From Bacteroidota bacterium (lineage in GTDB: Bacteria; Bacteroidota; Bacteroidia; NS11-12g; UBA955): a stretch of 64,000 nucleotides of DNA. Below the pieces are notes generated by a model. It did no database searches, was not told the DNA's origin, and worked only from the letters and a program-made list of their open reading frames with translations. The stretch spans positions 3,252 to 67,251 of the forward strand of contig JABMMZ010000065.1 in assembly GCA_013205405.1 (NCBI GenBank), given 5' to 3'. The position numbers and the translations under genes were made by a program. Shown here piece after piece: positions 1 to 9,711 of this stretch (position 1 is its first letter; the number at the start of each line of letters is the position of its first letter).

Positions 1-1153
1 ATGCAATATCAACTAACAACAACATGCGATTATGTTTTTTAGCAATCTGTTTTACTAATTCTGTTTTACCGGTCCCTGAAACGCCATAAAACAATATGGA
101 TAAGGCCTCTTTCATTTTATGTGACTTAAAATTTTCTGCCATTTTTTTGTATTTCTCAGGCGAAAGCATATCTATTATTTTAGTAATGTCTTTTTGCTGC
201 TTATCATTAAAGTATAAATTTTTAAATTCAATATCATCTGGTTTAATCAGCTGGCAAAACTTGTGCCTAATTTTTTTATCTTCAACTTTTACACAGTGCT
301 TCGTAAGCAAATCAAACATTTTATCACCAAAAGTCATGCTACTAAAATCAGCCAATTCCGGATTTACAAAACTGAGATAATTACAGGTAAACAAATCACA
401 TTGGTCATTTTTAATGCGTTGTTTGATATTGTAAACCAAATTATTTTCAAAACATAAGGTTTCACATATCAAATCCAAATCAAATTCTTCTCTATCAAAA
501 ACATATTCACTGCTTAACCAAAACAAAACTATTTTTTCTTCAGACAGAAAATTATTCGATTCTATTATATCTTTAAAAAAAGAATTTTCGTTAAAATCAA
601 TTAAATAGTTTTGGATGCCCTCATACATATCTTCAATAAATAAATCACATTCAACTAAATGTTTGATGTAATTTCTTAATTTGATTAAGCCATCGGTAAA
701 ATCTAAAGGCTTTTCATTTTCTAAACTAGTTTTATCGCAACACATTACTGCATTAATAATTTGTTGAGAAACAATGTATTCTGTAGTTTTAATCTTTTTC
801 ACCCGCTCGTAAGGAAAGGTTTTGTGAGATTGCTTAAGCCAGGTCCGTTTTACTAAATCGTTTATTTGATTATTTAAACTAATTATTTCTAAAGAAGAAA
901 ATCCTATTGATTTTAAAACTTTATGAATGTATCTAACCTCACCGATTAATTGATCGCAAATAATAACTGATAATAATACCCCGGTTTGGGGTTCAACATC
1001 AAAAAAATCACATACAATATTTAACTCGTTTTTATAAGTTTTTACTTTACTTACTTCATTAAATATGTTAACGTGATTACTATGCAGTGTTGTAATGCTT
1101 TGTAATAACATATTGTTTGTTAGAGAATGTTTTTTTAAATTTATTTCTTTCAT
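1..1153 (-). CDS. AAA+ ATPase, N-terminal ~384 codons only; the 3' part lies beyond the window start. It is not in the supplied ORF track because no stop codon is in the window.
   Basis: Hand translation of the minus strand from ATG 1153-1151 is open down to position 2: MKEINLKKHSLTNN...EALSILFYGVSGTGKTELVKQIAKKHNRMLLLVDIA. Walker A GVSGTGKT is encoded at 62-85. It has the same layout as CDS 6135-7760: a helical N-region of about 330 aa, then the P-loop. Confidence 0.8.
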   Translation of the reverse strand, partial: MKEINLKKHSLTNNMLLQSITTLHSNHVNIFNEVSKVKTYKNELNIVCDFFDVEPQTGVLLSVIICDQLIGEVRYIHKVLKSIGFSSLEIISLNNQINDLVKRTWLKQSHKTFPYERVKKIKTTEYIVSQQIINAVMCCDKTSLENEKPLDFTDGLIKLRNYIKHLVECDLFIEDMYEGIQNYLIDFNENSFFKDIIESNNFLSEEKIVLFWLSSEYVFDREEFDLDLICETLCFENNLVYNIKQRIKNDQCDLFTCNYLSFVNPELADFSSMTFGDKMFDLLTKHCVKVEDKKIRHKFCQLIKPDDIEFKNLYFNDKQQKDITKIIDMLSPEKYKKMAENFKSHKMKEALSILFYGVSGTGKTELVKQIAKKHNRMLLLVDIA

Positions 1154-1425
1154 CTTTTGTTTTTTTTAATTTTTAGGCAAAGGCATACACTTACCATTTA
1201 TAGGTTAATTTTTTTACATTTTTAGATTATATTATTGCTAGAGTTAAAGCAAATAATATTTTATAGATTAAAAATCAAATCCGAATTTAAAAATGAAACA
1301 AACAATTATATAAGAAGCTGTGAATGTTAAAATAAAAAAATAGTGTTTTTGAAAATTGTCAAATGATATTTGATCTTCGATCGTTTCGTAATAATCATCA
1401 AATATATCTTCCCTATCACTCAGTG

Positions 1426-1755
1426 TTACATATAAGGGGTCGTTAGGAAAATTTGGGTTACACCCTTAGTTCGAAATTCCGTCTGATATACTTCCTCCAT
1501 TGCCAAACAGTCATCCAATAAAATGTTTCTTTGCGATGAAGTAATAAAAAACTCGAATGCGAAAGGGAAAAACACCATAAATATTAATATTGAATGAGAT
1601 GAATACACTCCAAAAAATGCAAACAGAATAGTATTCAATATTAAAATAATTAAAGGTGAGCCGGGAGGAAATGGAATCCAGTCAAACAGATACCCCGTCT
1701 TCTTTTCTGAGTTTATTCGATTTAAATAATAAATTTGTGCTTCTTCGTTTTCCAT
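1426..1755 (-). CDS. small membrane protein (two predicted TM helices), function unknown
   Basis: 109-aa ORF with two hydrophobic stretches (PLIILILNTILFAFFGVY and ILIFMVFFPFAFEFFI). It lies 79 nt downstream of the DUF2779-type gene on the same strand. Confidence 0.5.
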   Translation of the reverse strand: MENEEAQIYYLNRINSEKKTGYLFDWIPFPPGSPLIILILNTILFAFFGVYSSHSILIFMVFFPFAFEFFITSSQRNILLDDCLAMEEVYQTEFRTKGVTQIFLTTPYM

Positions 1756-1834
1756 TTTACTAAAGTATATTCAGATTACAGGTATAAAAAATAAAACTGA
1801 AAAATAGTTTGTATCCAACTGTTAATCAATCTAT

Positions 1835-3346
1835 TTAAATTACGTTACAAAGTACTTTCCAAATTTCAACCATGGCTAAAGTATCCAATTTGCAATACGC
1901 TAATAAGTCATTTCTTGTTTTATTTACATCCCCTTTAAATGAGCCGTCAATCATACTCAGGTATGTTTTGTTGGCTAAATCGCCATTATTTATTTCCAAT
2001 GTTTTATAAGATAAATTCGGAACCAATGCAGGTAACACATCTTTAATTGAGGCACTTTTTCCCATTTGCGGAACATAATACCAAGCATTTTTAAAAACAT
2101 CTAATAAATCAACCATGCGATTATTGAGATCCAATAGAAACAATCGATCTTCAGGAAAATCTTCAGCCAATCGTTCGATAACCCCTTTTTCAAAACTTGC
2201 GTAATATGAAACAATACTTCCTGTTGTTCCAAAATCAAGTTTCATTTGATTGATCATAGCTTGGCGTGGATTTATAGCTTGTGGGTTTGTGAAATCTTCT
2301 GCTTGTGCTAAAAATTCTTTATGCTGTGGTTCTTCTGTTATATTTGAAACAATGTGCAAGGAATATTGAAATCCAACTTGCTCAAATGGAGACGTACGAT
2401 CTAAAACTGGAACAGTTGAATTTACCGTTTCAAAATCGAAAAAATACAATGGATAAACAGCAGTATTTAAAAACTGATGTATACGGGGACTATCAATATG
2501 GGTGGCTCCTGTTCGCTGCCCGTTTACTTGACAACTTTGGCGATGTGATAATTCAAAATCAACGGGAATATCGGCTAAATTAAAAATGCCATCGTTATAC
2601 AAAGTCCAAATTCTATCTCTCCCGTTTGATAAATTAAACACCTTATTATTATCCAATAAATTACCCCAGCAATGTGTTTTAAAATCACAAACAAATGGAT
2701 TATTACAATGCCTTCCAATGGCTTGAATTGGCTCTTCTCCTATTCTTATCATGGATTTAAGCTCTTCAATGTGTTGGATAACCCAAACTTGTTTTTGAAT
2801 AACTAATGCTGTAATATCTGTGAGAGTAAAAAAATCATTCAAATTAATGGCACCATTTTTTTCATACAATTTATTTATGTGCAACAACGAAAATCGTTTG
2901 GGAGCATGCCCAGCATTTGCCATCACCCAATATTGTAAGGCTGCATCTGTAATATAATAATCTTCAATTTTGCTGCTGCTTTTTACTTCTATGGCATGAA
3001 TATCCCCATTAGCATCATGCTGTAATATATCTAAAACGGATAATACTTCATCGTAATAAAATGCAGGTTCGTATAAGGTACAAGTCCTGTTTTGCATTTC
3101 AACAATCGTATTATCGATGGCATCAGCATAATCGTAATGCGTTTGACTTGTTAAATCCAAGCCATTAGGATAACGCTCCTGTGCCATTTTGCCTATCGCA
3201 TGGCCTTGATCAAAAATAGCTTGCTGACTGGAAGTGATGGCTGGTTTTAAATCTTTACGGTTCAGGTCTAAAAATAATTTTTTAGAACATTGCACACCCG
3301 ATACAAAGCGCGACTTAGATAATAGATGTGGATATTTTAATGGCAT
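1835..3346 (-). CDS. DUF2779-type dual nuclease: N-terminal Cas4/RecB-like PD-(D/E)XK domain plus C-terminal DnaQ-like 3'-5' exonuclease domain
   Basis: 503 aa. The N-half has D106 and E120-V-K122 (DIHAIEVKSSSK), plus Cys20 and C214-x5-C220-x5-C226, reminiscent of a Cas4/AddB Fe-S cluster. The C-half has FFDFET (D304, E306) and YCKLD near the C-terminus (DEDDy-like). The N-terminus MPLKYPHLLSKSRFVSGVQC matches my memory of DUF2779 proteins. Confidence 0.75.
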   Translation of the reverse strand: MPLKYPHLLSKSRFVSGVQCSKKLFLDLNRKDLKPAITSSQQAIFDQGHAIGKMAQERYPNGLDLTSQTHYDYADAIDNTIVEMQNRTCTLYEPAFYYDEVLSVLDILQHDANGDIHAIEVKSSSKIEDYYITDAALQYWVMANAGHAPKRFSLLHINKLYEKNGAINLNDFFTLTDITALVIQKQVWVIQHIEELKSMIRIGEEPIQAIGRHCNNPFVCDFKTHCWGNLLDNNKVFNLSNGRDRIWTLYNDGIFNLADIPVDFELSHRQSCQVNGQRTGATHIDSPRIHQFLNTAVYPLYFFDFETVNSTVPVLDRTSPFEQVGFQYSLHIVSNITEEPQHKEFLAQAEDFTNPQAINPRQAMINQMKLDFGTTGSIVSYYASFEKGVIERLAEDFPEDRLFLLDLNNRMVDLLDVFKNAWYYVPQMGKSASIKDVLPALVPNLSYKTLEINNGDLANKTYLSMIDGSFKGDVNKTRNDLLAYCKLDTLAMVEIWKVLCNVI

Positions 3347-3361
3347 AATTTATATTTTTTA

Positions 3362-3369
3362 CAAAGATA
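3362..3369 (-). promoter_or_regulatory. -7 promoter element (TAnnTTTG) for the DUF2779-type gene
   Basis: The minus strand reads TATCTTTG, 15 nt upstream of ATG 3346. Confidence 0.5.
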
Positions 3370-3372
3370 CGT

Positions 3373-3397
3373 TATAGGTATGCATTTTTATTGCAGA
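3373..3397 (-). promoter_or_regulatory. candidate operator (copy 2), upstream of the DUF2779-type nuclease gene
   Basis: The minus strand reads tctgcaataaaaatgcataCctata, identical to copy 1 at 24 of 25 positions, with a 19-nt exact core at 3379-3397. It lies 3 nt upstream of the -7 box at 3362-3369, the same spacing as copy 1. Confidence 0.6.
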
Positions 3398-3434
3398 GTT
3401 TAATTATAGAATAAATAAATTAAAATTTATTATA

Positions 3435-4580
3435 TTACTCATCAATTTCATTATTACTATCAATTAAATCTGAATTAATTTTGTTTATTTCCTCTTTTCT
3501 TAAATTGTCATTCTTAGAATTAAAAAAAGAATTATTCATATTAACTGACCCACCCTCAACCATAAATATGGGGCATTTCATATTCAATCCAATAGTATTC
3601 AATTTATTTATAGTATTATAAATATCAGTATTTGTACTATTAAATTTTTTTCTAGTATAAAGTTCATATATGAACTTAAACAGTGGCTTGTATTTTATAG
3701 TCCCACCACTTTTCGTTTCAGATACTTTAATCATTTCATTTTTAGCGCCAAAATTCAATACGACAATATTATTATTTTCTATTGGGGAAGTAAGTATTTC
3801 GTTTCTAAATTTTTTAGCATTTTCATCAACAGAATCATCAAAAATAAACTGTAATGAAGTATAAGTCGTGGCAACAAACCCATGTAGAAAGTTAATTGGT
3901 TTTTCTTTCGAATTATTGATATAGCGAGTAATTTCATTATACTTATTAATAAAATAATTACTCAAAAGATATGAAAAACCACCGGTAATATTTTGCCTTA
4001 CTTTAGTATCTTGAATAATTGGAAAAGGCAAAAAATCTATTAAAACAATACCTTTAGAGGCTAAAAATTCTAATTTTTGTTGTTTGGTAATACCCATAGG
4101 AAAAATAAGATTTCCACCTTTCCAATTAAAAGGGGCATTCAACCAAGGACTTTTTTTTGTTTGCTTCGGGTTATAAAAATATGATTTTTCATTATTTTTA
4201 GCATTTCCTTTCCAATAAGGGGGGGCTTCGCCTATTAGAATTTCAACATCTGAGATAATTCCTTCCTTTTTGACATTTTCTTTTGGGAAAAGTTTAAGAT
4301 AAAAATCTTTTGCTTCAATTATAATTGGGTTTTGATTTTTCGCAGAAACAATAACAAAGTTGTGTTGAATTCTCTTGTACATTCTTTCAACTCGATTTAC
4401 TCCTTTAAGAACATCAAGATAGTCAACAAAGTATACCCAATTTACTAAATATTCATCATATAATTCTTGAAAAAATTTACCATATACCCAGCCGTATTCC
4501 CAAGCTTTGTTATATAAATCTTCAAATTCTTTTTTAGAAAGTGGGTATAATTCTGCTTTTACTTCTGCTGCTTTTTTCAT
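3435..4580 (-). CDS. hypothetical protein, 381 aa; possible UDG-superfamily-like motif (weak)
   Basis: Long ORF. I prefer ATG 4580 (MKKAAEVKAELYP...) because it starts 1 nt after the stop of CDS 4582-4935, whereas the 4634 start would overlap that gene by 53 nt. No family recognised. The motif VEILIGEAPPYW (4218-4232) resembles the GEAPG-type motif 1 of family 4/5 uracil-DNA glycosylases. Confidence 0.6.
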   Translation of the reverse strand: MKKAAEVKAELYPLSKKEFEDLYNKAWEYGWVYGKFFQELYDEYLVNWVYFVDYLDVLKGVNRVERMYKRIQHNFVIVSAKNQNPIIIEAKDFYLKLFPKENVKKEGIISDVEILIGEAPPYWKGNAKNNEKSYFYNPKQTKKSPWLNAPFNWKGGNLIFPMGITKQQKLEFLASKGIVLIDFLPFPIIQDTKVRQNITGGFSYLLSNYFINKYNEITRYINNSKEKPINFLHGFVATTYTSLQFIFDDSVDENAKKFRNEILTSPIENNNIVVLNFGAKNEMIKVSETKSGGTIKYKPLFKFIYELYTRKKFNSTNTDIYNTINKLNTIGLNMKCPIFMVEGGSVNMNNSFFNSKNDNLRKEEINKINSDLIDSNNEIDE

Positions 4581-4581
4581 T

Positions 4582-4935
4582 TTATTTATTTTTAATAGTG
4601 ATTGAAATAGTATTATTTGTTTTATCCCATCCAATGCGAAGCTTTACGCTAGGGGTATTTAATTGGAGGTAATAGTTTTTACGCACATCCTTAATGGCTT
4701 GCTTGTATACTTCGTAGTTATTTTGTGTTGGTCTAAAATTCTGTTTAATTAATGCAATGCATTCGGTTATACTGAGTGCTTCATTTAATTTATAATGTTC
4801 AAAAAACGCTTTTTTAAAATTGATGGATCTAAATAAAACATAAATACCATTTTTATTTTTTTTGTGAACTAACAAATCACTTTTAAAAAAATTGATGTCC
4901 TTACCTCTTAACTCTTTTTCCATTTTATCTAACAT
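4582..4935 (-). CDS. hypothetical protein, 117 aa
   Basis: ORF packed tightly between the WYL gene (28-nt gap) and the 381-aa gene (1-nt gap). No family recognised. Confidence 0.55.
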   Translation of the reverse strand: MLDKMEKELRGKDINFFKSDLLVHKKNKNGIYVLFRSINFKKAFFEHYKLNEALSITECIALIKQNFRPTQNNYEVYKQAIKDVRKNYYLQLNTPSVKLRIGWDKTNNTISITIKNK

Positions 4936-4963
4936 TATATCCTATTTTAAAAAAAAGTTTCAC

Positions 4964-6040
4964 TTAATTTAAAACTTCATAAAATTCTCTAAATCGTCCT
5001 AATAAAAAAGCCAATTCAATGGATCGTTCGTTCGCCTTTTGCTCTTTGTTTAGTTTTTTCGATAATTTAATTTTTAGGCTCAGTACTAAAGAATTTTCTT
5101 TTAAATTTATTGATTTTTCTTGAATTTTCTGAGTAGGATGTAGGGGTAAACTTTTTACATAGGAAGCCGCCCAATCTCTAAATTTAATTTTCACCTCAGT
5201 TACGGTGTCTTCTTTAGAGTGGTTCCAAACACCAAGCACATTGTCAAAATGTGTTTTTAATTCAGTTTCTTTTTCTAACTTTTTATAATTAAACGTCACA
5301 CATTCCTCTTGCTCATCTAATAATTCATCAACACGCAAATTCCTAATTTGATCTATTCTAAAATTGATAATCGATTGATTATTACTATTTATAGCTGTTA
5401 AATAATAAATCCCATTATACAATCGTATTTGCATGGGCGCCACTTTTTGTTCTGAGGCCTTTTGTATGCTTGTATCTAATTTATTCACAGCGATGTAATG
5501 AAAATGGATGTATTGTCCCCGCTGAATATGCCCTAAAATTTTAATCGCTAATTTCACCACCTTATCTTCTTGCGCTAATTTTGGTTGCGAACTAATTACA
5601 ACAGAAGCACATTTGCTCTCTGTATTATCTAACTCAAATTGCACTACTAAACCTTCCATTATTTTTTTTACAGCTGGTAAGGATTCATATTGTTTTAAAA
5701 TTCCCATTAAAAATGGAACAGTTAATCGTTCATCTTCTTCTAAATCTCCAAAAACTGGCTGAGGACTATCGGCAGCATATTGATAAATTCCATAGCTATA
5801 TTCAATAGTAAAAACTTCCTTTTGTTTAGGGTCTATTTTATCAGATAGACTGTGAATAAAATTACCACTGCGTAAATCTTCTAGGGCATAATTAATCATT
5901 CTTTCTTTTATTGGATTGTAACCTGCTTCATCCAATTTGTCGTTAACAAAGTTTTTCATTTCTTCCAAACTTCCTCCGCCCTTTTTTAAAAATTGATCGA
6001 TAAAACGGATTCGTAATAATTTCTTTGAATTGTTATCCAT
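4964..6040 (-). CDS. WYL-domain transcriptional regulator (wHTH - WYL - WCX architecture, BrxR/CapW-like)
   Basis: 358 aa. N-terminal HTH-like segment: KKLLRIRFIDQFLKKGGGSLEEMKNF...INYALEDLRSG. WYL core at about aa 160-238: QYIHFHYIAV...VAPMQIRLYNGIYYLTAINSNNQSIINFRIDQIRNLRV. The C-terminal domain carries the PLHPTQK motif typical of WYL-protein C-terminal extensions. Confidence 0.75.
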   Translation of the reverse strand: MDNNSKKLLRIRFIDQFLKKGGGSLEEMKNFVNDKLDEAGYNPIKERMINYALEDLRSGNFIHSLSDKIDPKQKEVFTIEYSYGIYQYAADSPQPVFGDLEEDERLTVPFLMGILKQYESLPAVKKIMEGLVVQFELDNTESKCASVVISSQPKLAQEDKVVKLAIKILGHIQRGQYIHFHYIAVNKLDTSIQKASEQKVAPMQIRLYNGIYYLTAINSNNQSIINFRIDQIRNLRVDELLDEQEECVTFNYKKLEKETELKTHFDNVLGVWNHSKEDTVTEVKIKFRDWAASYVKSLPLHPTQKIQEKSINLKENSLVLSLKIKLSKKLNKEQKANERSIELAFLLGRFREFYEVLN

Positions 6041-6071
6041 ACTTTATTTATTCTTATAATTTTTTCAATTA

Positions 6072-6079
6072 CAAATGTA
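6072..6079 (-). promoter_or_regulatory. -7 promoter element (TAnnTTTG) for the WYL regulator operon
   Basis: The minus strand reads TACATTTG, 31 nt upstream of ATG 6040. Confidence 0.5.
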
Positions 6080-6088
6080 AACAATAAG

Positions 6089-6113
6089 TCTGCAATAAAA
6101 ATGCATAGCTATA
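6089..6113 (+). promoter_or_regulatory. candidate operator (copy 1), between the divergent WYL-regulator and AAA+ ATPase promoters
   Basis: tctgcaataaaaatgcataGctata. It contains two TGCA(A/T)(T/A) half-sites 11 bp apart. It lies 3 nt upstream of the ATPase -7-like box and 9 nt from the regulator -7 box on the other strand. Confidence 0.6.
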
Positions 6114-6116
6114 TTA

Positions 6117-6124
6117 TAATTTTA
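6117..6124 (+). promoter_or_regulatory. -7-like promoter element (7/8 match to TAnnTTTG) for the AAA+ ATPase gene
   Basis: TAATTTTA, 10 nt upstream of ATG 6135. Confidence 0.4.
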
Positions 6125-6134
6125 CAGAAAAAAT

Positions 6135-7760
6135 ATGAGAAATTGGTTTAAAGAATTATCAGTTGAAAAAACTGATCGAGTTGAAAAAAAAACAAACTGT
6201 CCAACATTAGAAAGCGAAGTATTTATAGAATTTGCAGCTTTTTTAGGCTTATCCGTTGAATTATCTTTTGTAATGTGTTGTTATTGCCATTTAAGTTCAA
6301 AACACAAAATTGTGAGTAGTTCAGAACTAATAAATTTGGCTAGCAAACAGCTTATATCAAAAGATGTAGAATTGGCCTATGAAGATTTATTATGTATGGG
6401 ATGGCTTATTAATAAATATGATAGAGGAAATAGTTTGGACGAACAAATTGTATTAAATAAAACCCTTGAGTTGGCCATTAAAAAATCAAATGCTGATTTA
6501 CTTCCGCGTTTGATTGAAAATTATAAATACAAAGGCCTGAAACAATTAATTATTAAGGCCTGTTTTTTAAGAACTAATGAAATAAGTAAACAAGAGTGGT
6601 TAGATTATACCACTAAAATCATGCTTAAACCAAGAACAACTTATCTAATCTATTTAAAATCTAAGCGATTATCCAAATTAGATAATGCGATGGTGCTTTT
6701 TGCAACATCCATATATATTCACGAAAGAATCAATAATTGTAGTTCCACCATACTAAGCACGTTTAGTGTTGATAGCATATCTCGTTTTAAACTGCATGCT
6801 GAATTGCAATCCAATCAACATAAAATTATTACCCAAAAATTATTTTTTAACGAAGAGCGGCAGTTTGGTGAAATAGCATTGTTGCCAACTAAAGAATGGT
6901 TAAAAGCAATTTTTCCAGAACTTAAAGTTGTTAATGCCATCGTTAATCACCCAGCTTTAACTCGAATCAATTATACATCAATTCATGAAAAACCATTATT
7001 ATTTAATTCGAATAAACTAAATGATATTTTATTGTTTGAAAAATTATTACAGCCAAAGCAATTTAAAAATTACCGTTTAAAGGCTTTAGAAATGAAAGAA
7101 ATGGGTGGCTTAACCTTTTTATTTTCTGGAGTGCCGGGAACTGGTAAAACTGAGCTTTGCAAACAGCTAGCGTTAAAAACGCATCGCGATGTACTTTTAT
7201 TTAATGTTTCTGAAACCAAAAATAAATTTTACGGTGAGACAGAAAAAAATGTTAAATCTATTTTTGATTATTATAGAACTCTAAGCCATGATCCTGATAA
7301 TTGTCCGATAATTGTATTTAACGAAGCGGATAGTCTTTTTTCTAAAAGAAGTGAAGGAGATAATTATAGTTCGCAAACAGAAAATACGATACAAACAATT
7401 TTATTAAATGAGCTAGAAAATTTTAATGGTATTTTAATTGCGACTACTAACCTACCCGATTCATTTGATGAAGCTTTTAAAAGGCGATTTCTATTTCAGT
7501 TCTCCTTTGATTTACCTGATTTAGAAACTCGAAAATTATTATTAACTACTTATTTTCCAGAAATACCATCTGAACAAAAATGTTTGCTTGCCGAAAAATA
7601 TATATTTTCTGCGGCTGAATTACAAAATTTTAGAAAGCATTTATTATTAAAAATTAGTTTGATTAACCCACAATGTAATACTGTTGTTGAATTTGAAACC
7701 TATTTTATGGGATTAACTAGTCCAAAAAGAAATGTAGTTAAGGGATTTAAAAACTATTAA
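6135..7760 (+). CDS. AAA+ ATPase (classical AAA clade) with a ~320-aa N-terminal domain of unknown function
   Basis: 541 aa. Walker A GVPGTGKT at 7128-7151. Walker B region IIVFNEAD at 7308-7328, with Asn396 (7320-7322) where the canonical Asp is expected. Sensor-1 ATTN, and Arg-finger region FKRRF. Confidence 0.85.
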   Translation: MRNWFKELSVEKTDRVEKKTNCPTLESEVFIEFAAFLGLSVELSFVMCCYCHLSSKHKIVSSSELINLASKQLISKDVELAYEDLLCMGWLINKYDRGNSLDEQIVLNKTLELAIKKSNADLLPRLIENYKYKGLKQLIIKACFLRTNEISKQEWLDYTTKIMLKPRTTYLIYLKSKRLSKLDNAMVLFATSIYIHERINNCSSTILSTFSVDSISRFKLHAELQSNQHKIITQKLFFNEERQFGEIALLPTKEWLKAIFPELKVVNAIVNHPALTRINYTSIHEKPLLFNSNKLNDILLFEKLLQPKQFKNYRLKALEMKEMGGLTFLFSGVPGTGKTELCKQLALKTHRDVLLFNVSETKNKFYGETEKNVKSIFDYYRTLSHDPDNCPIIVFNEADSLFSKRSEGDNYSSQTENTIQTILLNELENFNGILIATTNLPDSFDEAFKRRFLFQFSFDLPDLETRKLLLTTYFPEIPSEQKCLLAEKYIFSAAELQNFRKHLLLKISLINPQCNTVVEFETYFMGLTSPKRNVVKGFKNY

Positions 7761-7842
7761 ACCATTATCTAGTTATGATTTCAAAAACACAATCATAAAT
7801 GATTAAGTCCGATTTATAAATTGAAAAAAATAATTTAAGCAT

Positions 7843-8286
7843 ATGAAATTAATTAAAACAACTAATTATCCCTTACAGTGGGAAAATAGAATTGAAGAGT
7901 GGATGAATAAAAATGGCTTGTATCAATTGGGGAAATTAAACCAAAATGTAATGCATGATTTAAATTTATTTCTAAGTATTCTAAAATCTTACCCTGGCAT
8001 ATCTACAGAATTTCTTTATCAAATAAATGATTTTACTTATGGTATAAAAGTAAGTTGTAAAAACAAGAATATACCATTTATAGCTTACGTTCGTTATGTT
8101 GTAGATGCAGAAGGAGAATTAACATTTGAAATATTTTACACAAATTTTCCTGTTTGGAACAAGGAGAATTGCTCCATAGATTATCAGTATGAAACCATAA
8201 AGATTAGTGGTTCCGAAATAAACGATAGTCAATTCCTAGTTGAGCAAATCATGCAATTATATATTCTTTTTTCAGATTCAAATTAA
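7843..8286 (+). CDS. hypothetical protein, 147 aa
   Basis: ORF 82 nt downstream of the AAA+ ATPase on the same strand. No family recognised. Confidence 0.5.
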   Translation: MKLIKTTNYPLQWENRIEEWMNKNGLYQLGKLNQNVMHDLNLFLSILKSYPGISTEFLYQINDFTYGIKVSCKNKNIPFIAYVRYVVDAEGELTFEIFYTNFPVWNKENCSIDYQYETIKISGSEINDSQFLVEQIMQLYILFSDSN

Positions 8287-8611: not shown

Positions 8612-8619
8612 TATATTTG
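8612..8619 (+). promoter_or_regulatory. -7 promoter element (TAnnTTTG) for the OMP gene
   Basis: TATATTTG, 12 nt upstream of ATG 8632. Confidence 0.45.
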
Positions 8620-8631
8620 TATATATTAATT

Positions 8632-9357
8632 ATGAAAAAATATTTTACTATCATCATAGTTTTTGCCTTTATAAAAAGCATAAACGCTCAAAATGAAAAC
8701 TTATTTTCTAAAGCCCTTTCTATAAGCATAGGGGCAAGTAATCCGCAGGGTGATTTAAGCAAAACAAATATAAATGATAGTAGCTCGGGCTATGCCAAAA
8801 GAGGTGCTGCACTCGCCCTTAATTTTGAGTACAGTTTTCCAAAAGGAATAGGCTTTTATGCCCAATACCATACCACCACTATGGCTATAGACAATGCCAA
8901 ACTGGCTTCAGATGCAGAAACAGATTTAGGCTTTGGTTGGAAAAATTCTGAAATAAAAACAAGCGGTTATAAAATTAGTGCTCTTAATTTTGGTCTAATG
9001 TACACCATCAATAAAAACCATAAATTTCAAATAATACCACGTTTAGGCTTTAGCTTTAGCAATTGCACTAACAGAAAAATAGATGCCACTTTTAAAAATG
9101 GCGCATTTACTGCACGCTATAATTTTGAAGATGGTAAGGCAAGTGCTGTGAATATTAATTGGGGTTTTGATTTAAGTTACCGTGTATCTAAAAAAATAAT
9201 TATTCTAGCTAAGTTTGTAAACCAAGTACAAGTGCCACAATTTGATGTTAAAAGACAAGCCTATCTCAATGGCTTTTTAATAAAAGAAGAAAAGAAAAAA
9301 GAAACCGTAGGACAGCTATTTAGCGGATTTTTGTTTGGAATAAAATATAGGATTTGA
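8632..9357 (+). CDS. outer-membrane beta-barrel protein (porin-like), signal peptide
   Basis: ATG 8632 gives MKKYFTIIIVFAFIKSINAQ (signal peptide). The rest has an alternating aromatic/small-residue beta-strand pattern (YAQYHTTT, GFSFSN, WGFDLSYRV). The track start at 8617 is a TTG inside the -7 box. Confidence 0.6.
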   Translation: MKKYFTIIIVFAFIKSINAQNENLFSKALSISIGASNPQGDLSKTNINDSSSGYAKRGAALALNFEYSFPKGIGFYAQYHTTTMAIDNAKLASDAETDLGFGWKNSEIKTSGYKISALNFGLMYTINKNHKFQIIPRLGFSFSNCTNRKIDATFKNGAFTARYNFEDGKASAVNINWGFDLSYRVSKKIIILAKFVNQVQVPQFDVKRQAYLNGFLIKEEKKKETVGQLFSGFLFGIKYRI

Positions 9358-9369
9358 GACTAATAAATT

Positions 9370-9711
9370 ATGATTTGGAATTCGATTCGCAATGATATCT
9401 TTCTTGAAAAATCAAATCTATTTCTAAAATGGGGTATTTCTAATTTTGAATTATCTAAAACAGGCAATCCTATTATAGAAAAACAGGATGGGAGAGTAAA
9501 AATAATATGGAAGGATGAATCTCTACTTTCTGGAATTAAAGGCGATTGGTATGTTACTTTTTTGAAAATGACGAAATTAAACCGTTTAATTCAATTAATT
9601 TATATTACTCAGAAGACTTTATTTCTATTAATTTATTTTGAGACAATTAAAAACCATCTGATTAAGAATCTTGGATTCTCTGAAATACAACAAAATGCAA
9701 ATGGCAAATAA
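9370..9711 (+). CDS. hypothetical protein, 113 aa
   Basis: ORF only; no recognisable motifs. Confidence 0.35.
   Translation: MIWNSIRNDIFLEKSNLFLKWGISNFELSKTGNPIIEKQDGRVKIIWKDESLLSGIKGDWYVTFLKMTKLNRLIQLIYITQKTLFLLIYFETIKNHLIKNLGFSEIQQNANGK

Follow-up and report, generated by a model that had tools for sequence, protein, structure and literature searches.

A candidate WYL-controlled conflict system in a mobile nine-gene cassette of freshwater Bacteroidota

The cassette and its copies

A 64,000-nucleotide stretch of contig JABMMZ010000065.1 from a Bacteroidota bacterium, hereafter the window, carries at its left end a cassette of nine genes and about 9.5 kb. The cassette encodes a WYL-domain protein, a DUF2779 nuclease-like protein, two AAA+ ATPases, a membrane protein and four further proteins, and we weigh below whether it may be an undescribed conflict system. 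A preliminary description of this DNA had listed eight open reading frames (ORFs) in the block; ORF listing and translation place all eight at the given positions and strands. It had also put the left boundary beyond the window. Indeed, the cassette overruns the left window edge by about 1.2 kb, and we found the remainder of AAA571 and a 206-aa gene of no known family (unk206) further left on the source contig. For this extension we took the 108-kb Joint Genome Institute (JGI) contig Ga0335109_1603227 (L001; window coordinate = 13347 minus L001 coordinate), and an independent Logan assembly was also found. The right end falls exactly at window position 8286, the stop codon of unk147. The gene order is unk147 and AAA541, then, beyond a divergent region, WYL, unk113, unk381, DUF2779, TM (transmembrane), AAA571 and unk206. 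In window coordinates, the features are as follows.

1..1153, minus strand: first 384 codons of AAA571, with the P-loop/AAA start; the whole gene matches PF00004 (E 3.7e-24)
1225..1245, minus strand: degenerate operator-like sequence AACTCTAGCAATAATATAATC upstream of AAA571; kept in three sister cassettes, fails the consensus, weak evidence
1268..1755, minus strand: disrupted membrane-protein gene with a 1-nt deletion near 1459; the ORF at 1426-1755 (109 aa) is its N-terminal remnant and has no Pfam, NCBIfam, PHROGs or PADLOC family
1835..3346, minus strand: DUF2779 protein, 503 aa, PF11074
3379..3396, minus strand: predicted operator copy 1, exact 18-mer CTGCAATAAAAATGCATA
3435..4580, minus strand: unk381, 381 aa, no Pfam, NCBIfam, PHROGs or PADLOC family
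4582..4935, minus strand: unk113, 117 aa (113 aa from the second ATG, start 4923), no family in the same four collections
4964..6040, minus strand: WYL protein, 358 aa, PF13280; first gene of the WYL-113-381 unit, divergent to AAA541
6090..6107, plus strand: predicted operator copy 2, the identical 18-mer, in the 94-bp WYL/AAA541 divergent region
6135..7760, plus strand: AAA541, 541 aa, PF00004 (E 7e-24)
7843..8286, plus strand: unk147, 147 aa, no family in the same four collections

The gene described earlier as encoding a two-TM protein (1426-1755) does exist as an ORF, and it is actually the frameshifted remnant of a protein of 162-168 aa with three TM segments. The gene is intact, with the third segment at the C-terminus, in two sister copies (L005 and L007), and the frameshift of the window copy is also present in the independent Logan assembly. 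The suggestion that the block is AT-rich has weak backing, as the difference is marginal: its GC fraction is 0.275-0.31, compared with 0.30-0.36 in the rest, and the stretches at 19-21, 38-40 and 53-55 kb are just as low.

Following unk381 homologues, we reached sister cassettes with the same nine genes in the same order in L005 (ENA, 211 kb) and in L007/L012 (metagenome-assembled genome, MAG, GCA_945861665). Nucleotide identity to L005 and L007 is about 95% across window 8286-4404 and 3400-1 and continues to L001 position 14042, into unk206. To the right of the window copy lie an outer membrane protein (OMP)-like gene and then acpP-fabF-rnc; to its left, in L001, unk206 is followed by rmuC, an SRPBCC-like gene, ssb and a gene for a large protein secreted by the type IX secretion system. 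The L005 copy is flanked by dbpA and cyanophycin synthetase on one side and by an AAA_14/DUF4143 gene and metG on the other, and the L007 copy by a Fic gene, a second 381-family paralogue and methyltransferase fragments. The same block, about 95% identical, thus stands in three unrelated neighbourhoods, and the cassette is evidently accessory, as the preliminary description had proposed, and mobile. It is also rare and sporadic. A pattern-plus-tblastn scan of 185,579 species genomes returned 11 loci, all in MAGs of freshwater Bacteroidota. A metagenome scan with FabF gave 80 loci, the closest being 88% (on a 2-kb contig) and 84% identical, which are distant relatives only; the 84%-identical relative has acpP-fabF-rnc without the cassette and is too distant for an empty-site comparison.

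We computed pairwise protein identities among the three copies (L001, L005 and L007). Both ATPases, AAA541 and AAA571, are 97-98% identical, followed by unk147 (95-97%), the WYL protein (91-92%), the DUF2779 protein (89-94%), unk113 (88-94%) and the TM protein (85-91%). Two proteins are hypervariable, namely unk381 (53-76%) and unk206 (40-65%). The first ~59 codons of unk381 and ~44 of unk206 are constant at the level of about 95%, and the remainder diverges. A family alignment shows that unk381 alleles are mosaics, in which an insertion that may be absent is variously combined with at least three types of C-terminus. Such hypervariability inside near-identical DNA is typical of specificity or arms-race modules, and a constant N-terminus joined to a fast-evolving body is what we would expect of an exchangeable module of this kind that docks on conserved partners.

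The second 381-family member of L007 (320 aa; L007 5142-6104, minus strand) is divergent and lies directly beside unk147. It is a possible donor for allele exchange.

Regulator, operator and enzymes

The regulator had been called a WYL protein, and PF13280 matches it above cutoff (30.0 bits against 21.8, residues 172-237), as does the PADLOC WYL model (E 5.8e-14, residues 158-326). There is no helix-turn-helix (HTH) match in Pfam or NCBIfam, and residues 8-60 show an HTH_11-type pattern by eye only. Within the 64-kb window, the exact 18-mer CTGCAATAAAAATGCATA occurs only at the two cassette sites. Each exact copy stands 7-10 nt upstream of a box of the TAnnTTTG type, which is the consensus of the Bacteroidota -7 promoter element. 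From the end of copy 1 it is 9 nt to a TATCTTTG box and 32 nt to the start of DUF2779; copy 2 is flanked by the -7-like boxes TACATTTG toward WYL and TAATTTTA toward AAA541. The 18-mer overlies the promoter -33 region both of the DUF2779 unit and of the WYL and AAA541 units, which diverge from each other. A sigma-70 promoter scan was uninformative, as expected for Bacteroidota (52 sites found, 60 expected).

The preliminary description had a shared cis-element tying together at least three transcription units. Two exact copies stand, and the element is conserved far beyond the lineage; the third copy, near 1225-1245 on the minus strand, is degenerate. In the diverged L010 cassette (about 72% nucleotide identity), a clean palindrome is found upstream of unk381, upstream of DUF2779 and in the WYL/AAA intergenic region. 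A 23-bp palindrome adjoins the WYL genes of L010, L023 and L108. In L023 and L108, whose WYL-like proteins are much more divergent, perfect 25-bp palindromes lie beside the WYL gene (ACTACGCAA-ATTAA-TTGCGTAGT and ACTCCGCAA-ATATA-TTGCGGAGT, respectively). Another core site of L108 directly precedes DUF2779, and core-palindrome sites occur in L107 too. The pattern ACTnnGCAW-N5-WTGCnnAGT occurs at 5 sites in 456 kb of cassette-type loci and at none in 919 kb of control Bacteroidota loci. Taken together with the confinement of the 18-mer to two cassette sites, its lack in the controls argues for a local rather than a global regulon. At the level of sequence, we regard this as strong evidence that a regulator and its operator are conserved as a pair, which would control the nuclease and ATPase units.

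The position at -33 fits repression by analogy with BrxR and CapW, and it is equally the place where activators of the PafBC type bind. As with BrxR and CapW of BREX and CBASS, the WYL gene heads the operons that its product apparently controls and lies divergent to them; there is a palindromic operator in its own promoter region, and the regulon is local. The differences are that the genes under control have nothing in common with BREX or CBASS, that the predicted operator recurs at two to three promoters within the cassette, and that the protein resembles known WYL proteins in the WYL region only, with no PDB relative by sequence. With PafBC and DriD it shares the WYL domain, an operator at -33/-35 and the control of DNA-processing genes. 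Those regulators, however, run genome-wide core-repair regulons, whereas the regulator described here sits in a mobile cassette with cassette-specific sites.

A 172-aa protein with weak matches to sigma-70 regions 2 and 4 travels with the WYL-like, AAA+ and unk147-like genes in two distant loci (L003 13815-14333; L021 4587-5105). It hints at a second regulatory layer in that branch.

The linkage of the cassette families was followed with family hidden Markov models (HMMs) iterated over all fetched loci, where the distant loci stand at 25-45% protein identity. WYL-like, 381-like and unk147-like genes occur together with an AAA gene of the ~540-aa winged-helix type in L003/L013, L016 and L020. 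DUF2779 is added to that set in L010, L014 and L020, and in L020 the five families co-occur at 25-35% identity. Co-localisation of the homologues with WYL genes, which the preliminary description had left as a question, is thus found in distant genomes. Other loci hold partial sets. L108 has DUF2779, WYL and the winged-helix AAA gene, with 381-like and unk147-like genes undetected; L021 and L023 have WYL and AAA+ only (plus unk147 in L021); L104/L105 combine WYL, a 381-like gene and DUF2779 with an ATPase of a different type. The gene of a very distant 381-family member (P0245, profile E 5e-19) is divergent to a WYL gene, with DUF2779 four genes away and a DnaB_C-like ATPase in place of the AAA+ protein. 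In L106, 381-like and unk147-like genes stand with cpYpsA and a PDDEXK protein.

The call of a Cas4-like plus DnaQ-like dual nuclease agrees with our results. The protein matches PF11074 (E 1.7e-35, 122.5 bits against a cutoff of 23.3), and two residue sets are invariant in 10 homologues: D106, E120-x-K122, Q138 and C20/C214/C220/C226 in the N-terminal half, and D304-x-E306, D413 and Y484-x3-D488 in the C-terminal half. This fits a Cas4/RecB-like PD-(D/E)XK nuclease joined to a DEDDy-type 3'-5' exonuclease-like domain. Both active sites appear intact, and the enzyme looks active. A Cas4-like plus exonuclease architecture was predicted earlier for the DUF2779 family (PMC13621843, PMC3985635). 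The protein shares its two-domain architecture and catalytic residues with the DUF2779/TM0106-type Cas4-DnaQ fusions and solo-Cas4, and differs from them in its linkage to WYL, 381-family and winged-helix AAA genes, which is absent from the literature searched.

That the block encodes two paralogous AAA+ ATPases is borne out by PF00004 matches in both. AAA571 (571 aa) has a long N-terminal domain and a classic-clade AAA module, and is 38% identical to AAA541 over the AAA half. The C-terminal part of AAA541 is likewise of the classic clade, with Cdc48, AFG2 and VAT as top PDB relatives (1e-24) and GxPGTGKT, TTN and RR conserved. Its N-terminal 320 residues are modelled by AlphaFold (predicted local distance difference test, pLDDT, 86) as two helix-helix-helix-hairpin units. 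Foldseek aligns this region with winged helices of the MarR and MukE/F types (E 0.1-0.5, probability up to 0.99 on partial alignments), which gives modest grounds to regard these ~320 residues as two winged-helix units. Full-length relatives of ~540 aa form more than 100 clusters in metagenomes. By their clade, both ATPases are protein remodellers rather than motors acting on DNA, with predicted winged helices in the N-domain. The vocabulary of nuclease, NTPase and small membrane protein proposed earlier needs two refinements: the NTPases are remodellers, and the membrane gene is broken here.

Across the winged-helix AAA+ family, both paralogues included, Walker B reads N-E (F-N-E-A-D) instead of D-E. 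This may slow or regulate ATP hydrolysis.

The best PADLOC/NCBIfam match of both ATPases is IetA/IteA of the IetAS system, which likewise has a classic-clade AAA module. The match is limited to the AAA core (NCBIfam IteA 57 and 25 bits against an equivalog cutoff of 510). The cassette encodes no IetS serine protease and no protease domain in any gene, and its ATPases differ further in the unrelated tandem winged-helix N-region and in the N-E Walker B.

The 381-, 117- and 147-aa proteins were described as unknown, and we find no family for them in the four collections named above, which were run on all window proteins and many neighbours. The unk113 gene is kept only in the close cassette lineage, while an unk147-like gene recurs beside the AAA+/WYL pair in distant loci. 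By hhalign, unk147, unk206, unk113 and unk381 show no relationship to each other, and PDB searches with unk206 and the WYL protein returned nothing usable.

Beyond its constant first ~59 residues, unk381 has a hypervariable alpha/beta body with the invariant motifs IGEAPP, YxYxP and D-x2-PFPIxQ-x4-R; in the C-terminal part only P337 and N354 are conserved. The superfamily is rare, with 164 clusters in 1.84 billion representatives by exhaustive HMMER search. No Pfam domain, including that of uracil-DNA glycosylases (UDGs), is found in 96 distant family members, and two profiles gave no significant match in a PDB sequence search. The structure model is confident (pLDDT 81.5, predicted template modelling score 0.86), and Foldseek finds no significant neighbour for it in PDB and BFVD (E of 2 or more). 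The top matches, all non-significant, include MtUng (E 2-3), a viral UDG and DUF1643/UDG (E 3). By hhalign against UDGs, the probability is 1% (family-4 alignment) and 5% (E. coli Ung), and what aligns is motif A together with strand 2.

In unk381 the secondary-structure elements follow an order that fits the UDG superfamily: strand 1 is followed by IGEAPP, and a helix by strand 2 ending in D-x2-PFP. Its GE-A-P-P loop behind strand 1 resembles GE(A/G)PG of family 4, and strand 2 ends in an acidic residue at the place where UDGs have Asn. On the other hand, the HPS-type motif B (HPSPLS) is missing from the invariant columns, and unk381 has an additional helical domain, which is conserved, at its N-terminus and a variable domain at its C-terminus. 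A comparison set of UDG genes was sought in the fetched loci, and none was found. We keep the glycosylase-like fold of unk381 as a tentative lead from the model, more apt to fail than to hold. Defence glycosylases including Brig1 belong to the UDG superfamily.

Interpretation and rival explanations

The cassette matches no named defence system, in line with the preliminary description. PADLOC-DB v2 gives only generic IetA, TRIP13, Cas4 and WYL matches and no complete set, and IetS, Cas1/2, PglX, CD-NTase or any other system-defining protein is not found in the cassette. A CRISPR-Cas adaptation module was also considered and rejected; there is no Cas1/Cas2 match and no repeat array in 21.5 kb. 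Literature searches on DUF2779, and on WYL with Cas4 and DnaQ, returned no description of the combination.

From its context, we propose as the likeliest reading that the cassette, a single self-contained unit, may be an undescribed, horizontally mobile, WYL-controlled conflict system that targets nucleic acids in anti-phage or anti-plasmid defence. We hold this proposal to be evenly poised between right and wrong. The earlier idea of an undescribed defence-type system thus stands as regards accessory status, co-localisation with WYL genes and the lack of a named match, and its defence function is read from context. We prefer a conflict system over housekeeping because of the local regulator, the relocation of the block, its rarity, the hypervariable modules, the intact DNA-processing enzymes and the restriction-type and conflict neighbours. 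These neighbours of related loci include McrBC, T5orf172, Fic, cpYpsA, the PDDEXK protein and AAA_14/DUF4143.

Such a system could work as follows. The WYL protein, with its dedicated palindromic operator over the promoter -33 regions of the DUF2779 and WYL/AAA541 units, would keep the cassette off, or in a poised state, until a nucleic-acid-derived cue of infection or DNA damage is bound by the WYL domain, as suggested by BrxR, CapW, PafBC and DriD. The hypervariable 381-aa protein might then recognise the foreign target, possibly a modified or unusual base. The DUF2779 enzyme would degrade exposed DNA ends from both polarities through its Cas4-like and DEDDy domains. In the least certain step, the two winged-helix AAA+ remodellers, each with a small partner (unk147 and unk206), would assemble, activate or recycle the nucleoprotein complex, or else strip the regulator from its operator. 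A bolder version would make the cassette the type example of a new immune system, with a hypervariable, glycosylase-like protein as exchangeable sensor of foreign (modified) DNA, a Cas4-DnaQ executioner, winged-helix AAA+ unfoldases licensing or resetting it together with hypervariable partners, and a WYL regulator-operator pair conserved across related Bacteroidota systems. That version we consider doubtful.

Several observations weigh against defence. None of the cassette components is a validated defence protein, and the conflict-type neighbours are a plain listing. The glycosylase-like reading of unk381 is non-significant by the Foldseek and hhalign values given above. Since the TM gene is frameshifted, the system may be decaying in the window copy, or the gene may be dispensable. 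WYL activators such as PafBC also bind at -33, so that the WYL protein may repress or activate. The DUF2779 family is quasi-essential in the minimal mycoplasma JCVI-syn3.0 (PMC13621843), and hence it is not intrinsically a defence gene. Finally, rmuC (L001 14535-15809) begins only 2 nt after unk206, with ssb 2 kb beyond, and this fits DNA repair as well as defence.

The last three points also favour a DNA-damage-inducible repair or recombination cassette, in which the WYL protein, like PafBC or DriD, would sense single-stranded DNA and activate a local DNA-processing set, made up of the glycosylase-like unk381, the Cas4/DnaQ-type nuclease as end processor, the AAA+ remodellers and, in the window's genome, a co-transcribed RmuC. 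WYL regulators have been linked to genotoxic stress (PMC10693628), the predicted operator lies at -35, where damage-response WYL activators bind, and every recognisable cassette enzyme acts on DNA. Yet the cassette is rare and sporadic, its 95%-identical copies occupy different loci, hypervariability as in two of its genes is not seen in housekeeping repair genes, and the regulon appears local. Moreover, rmuC adjoins the cassette in L001 and L007 and not in L005. A repair cassette therefore seems quite improbable to us. The cassette might instead consist of two or three independent modules that happen to share a defence island and move jointly, an unlikely arrangement in our view and one partly compatible with a conflict system. 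Such a split would place WYL, the winged-helix AAA541, unk147 and unk381 in module A, DUF2779 and TM in module B, and AAA571, unk206 and possibly RmuC in module C. Subsets in distant loci speak for it: L021 and L023 have WYL and AAA without 381 or DUF2779, L003 lacks DUF2779, L009 combines 381 and DUF2779 and shows no WYL gene in the 10 kb upstream, and the only visible ATPase of L010 is of the AAA571 type. The merely degenerate operator copy upstream of AAA571 points the same way. Against this, one operator serves the DUF2779 and the WYL/AAA units in the window and independently in L108 and L010, nine genes stay together and in order in three contexts, and the five families meet again in L020.

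We consider it very improbable that the cassette is cargo of a mobile element that escaped recognition (for example a phage satellite or integrative element), or a module for its maintenance, and serves the replication or DNA processing of that element rather than host defence. The block does relocate with sharp boundaries, and in L104/L105 the module includes a DnaB_C-like ATPase and lies close to transposase fragments. However, no integrase, transposase, relaxase, replication initiator or capsid gene lies in or beside the cassette in L001, L005 or L007. The junctions hold no recombinase, tRNA, Rfam element, tandem or other repeat array, or terminal repeat, and tblastn with unk381 and the AAA N-domain finds no match in 50,697 phage and 72,556 plasmid records.

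Defence catalogues come mostly from Proteobacteria and Firmicutes, and the abundant freshwater Bacteroidota are barely covered. The cassette is a compact candidate with a regulator-operator pair already defined, and it holds at least three protein families without annotation, one of them a rare superfamily absent from Pfam and, by sequence search, from PDB. Its two hypervariable genes in near-identical DNA are a natural experiment that points to specificity determinants. If true, the proposed conflict system would give the first biological context for DUF2779 and for the widespread winged-helix AAA+ ATPase family. Many Bacteroidota are not known to have a classical LexA system. Should the cassette be a damage-response module, it would show Bacteroidota wiring local DNA-damage responses through WYL proteins.

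Flanking genes

Between the cassette and acpP, window 8617-9711 (plus strand) encodes an OMP beta-barrel-like protein of 246 aa and a 113-aa unknown. Conservation among the copies ends at 8286, and both genes lie outside the conserved block; the OMP-like protein has no relatives in the metagenome scan. AAA_14/DUF4143 genes adjoin two unrelated versions of the system, in L005 (15853-17013, minus strand) and in L020 (12339-12941 and 13486-14829, both minus strand), and L020 also has a gene with a NADase_transloc domain nearby. RmuC matches the PADLOC RTasRmuC model (E 4e-128), but the reverse transcriptase is absent. The rmuC genes of L001 and L007 are about 94% identical in nucleotide sequence, and the start codon in L007 is ATA.

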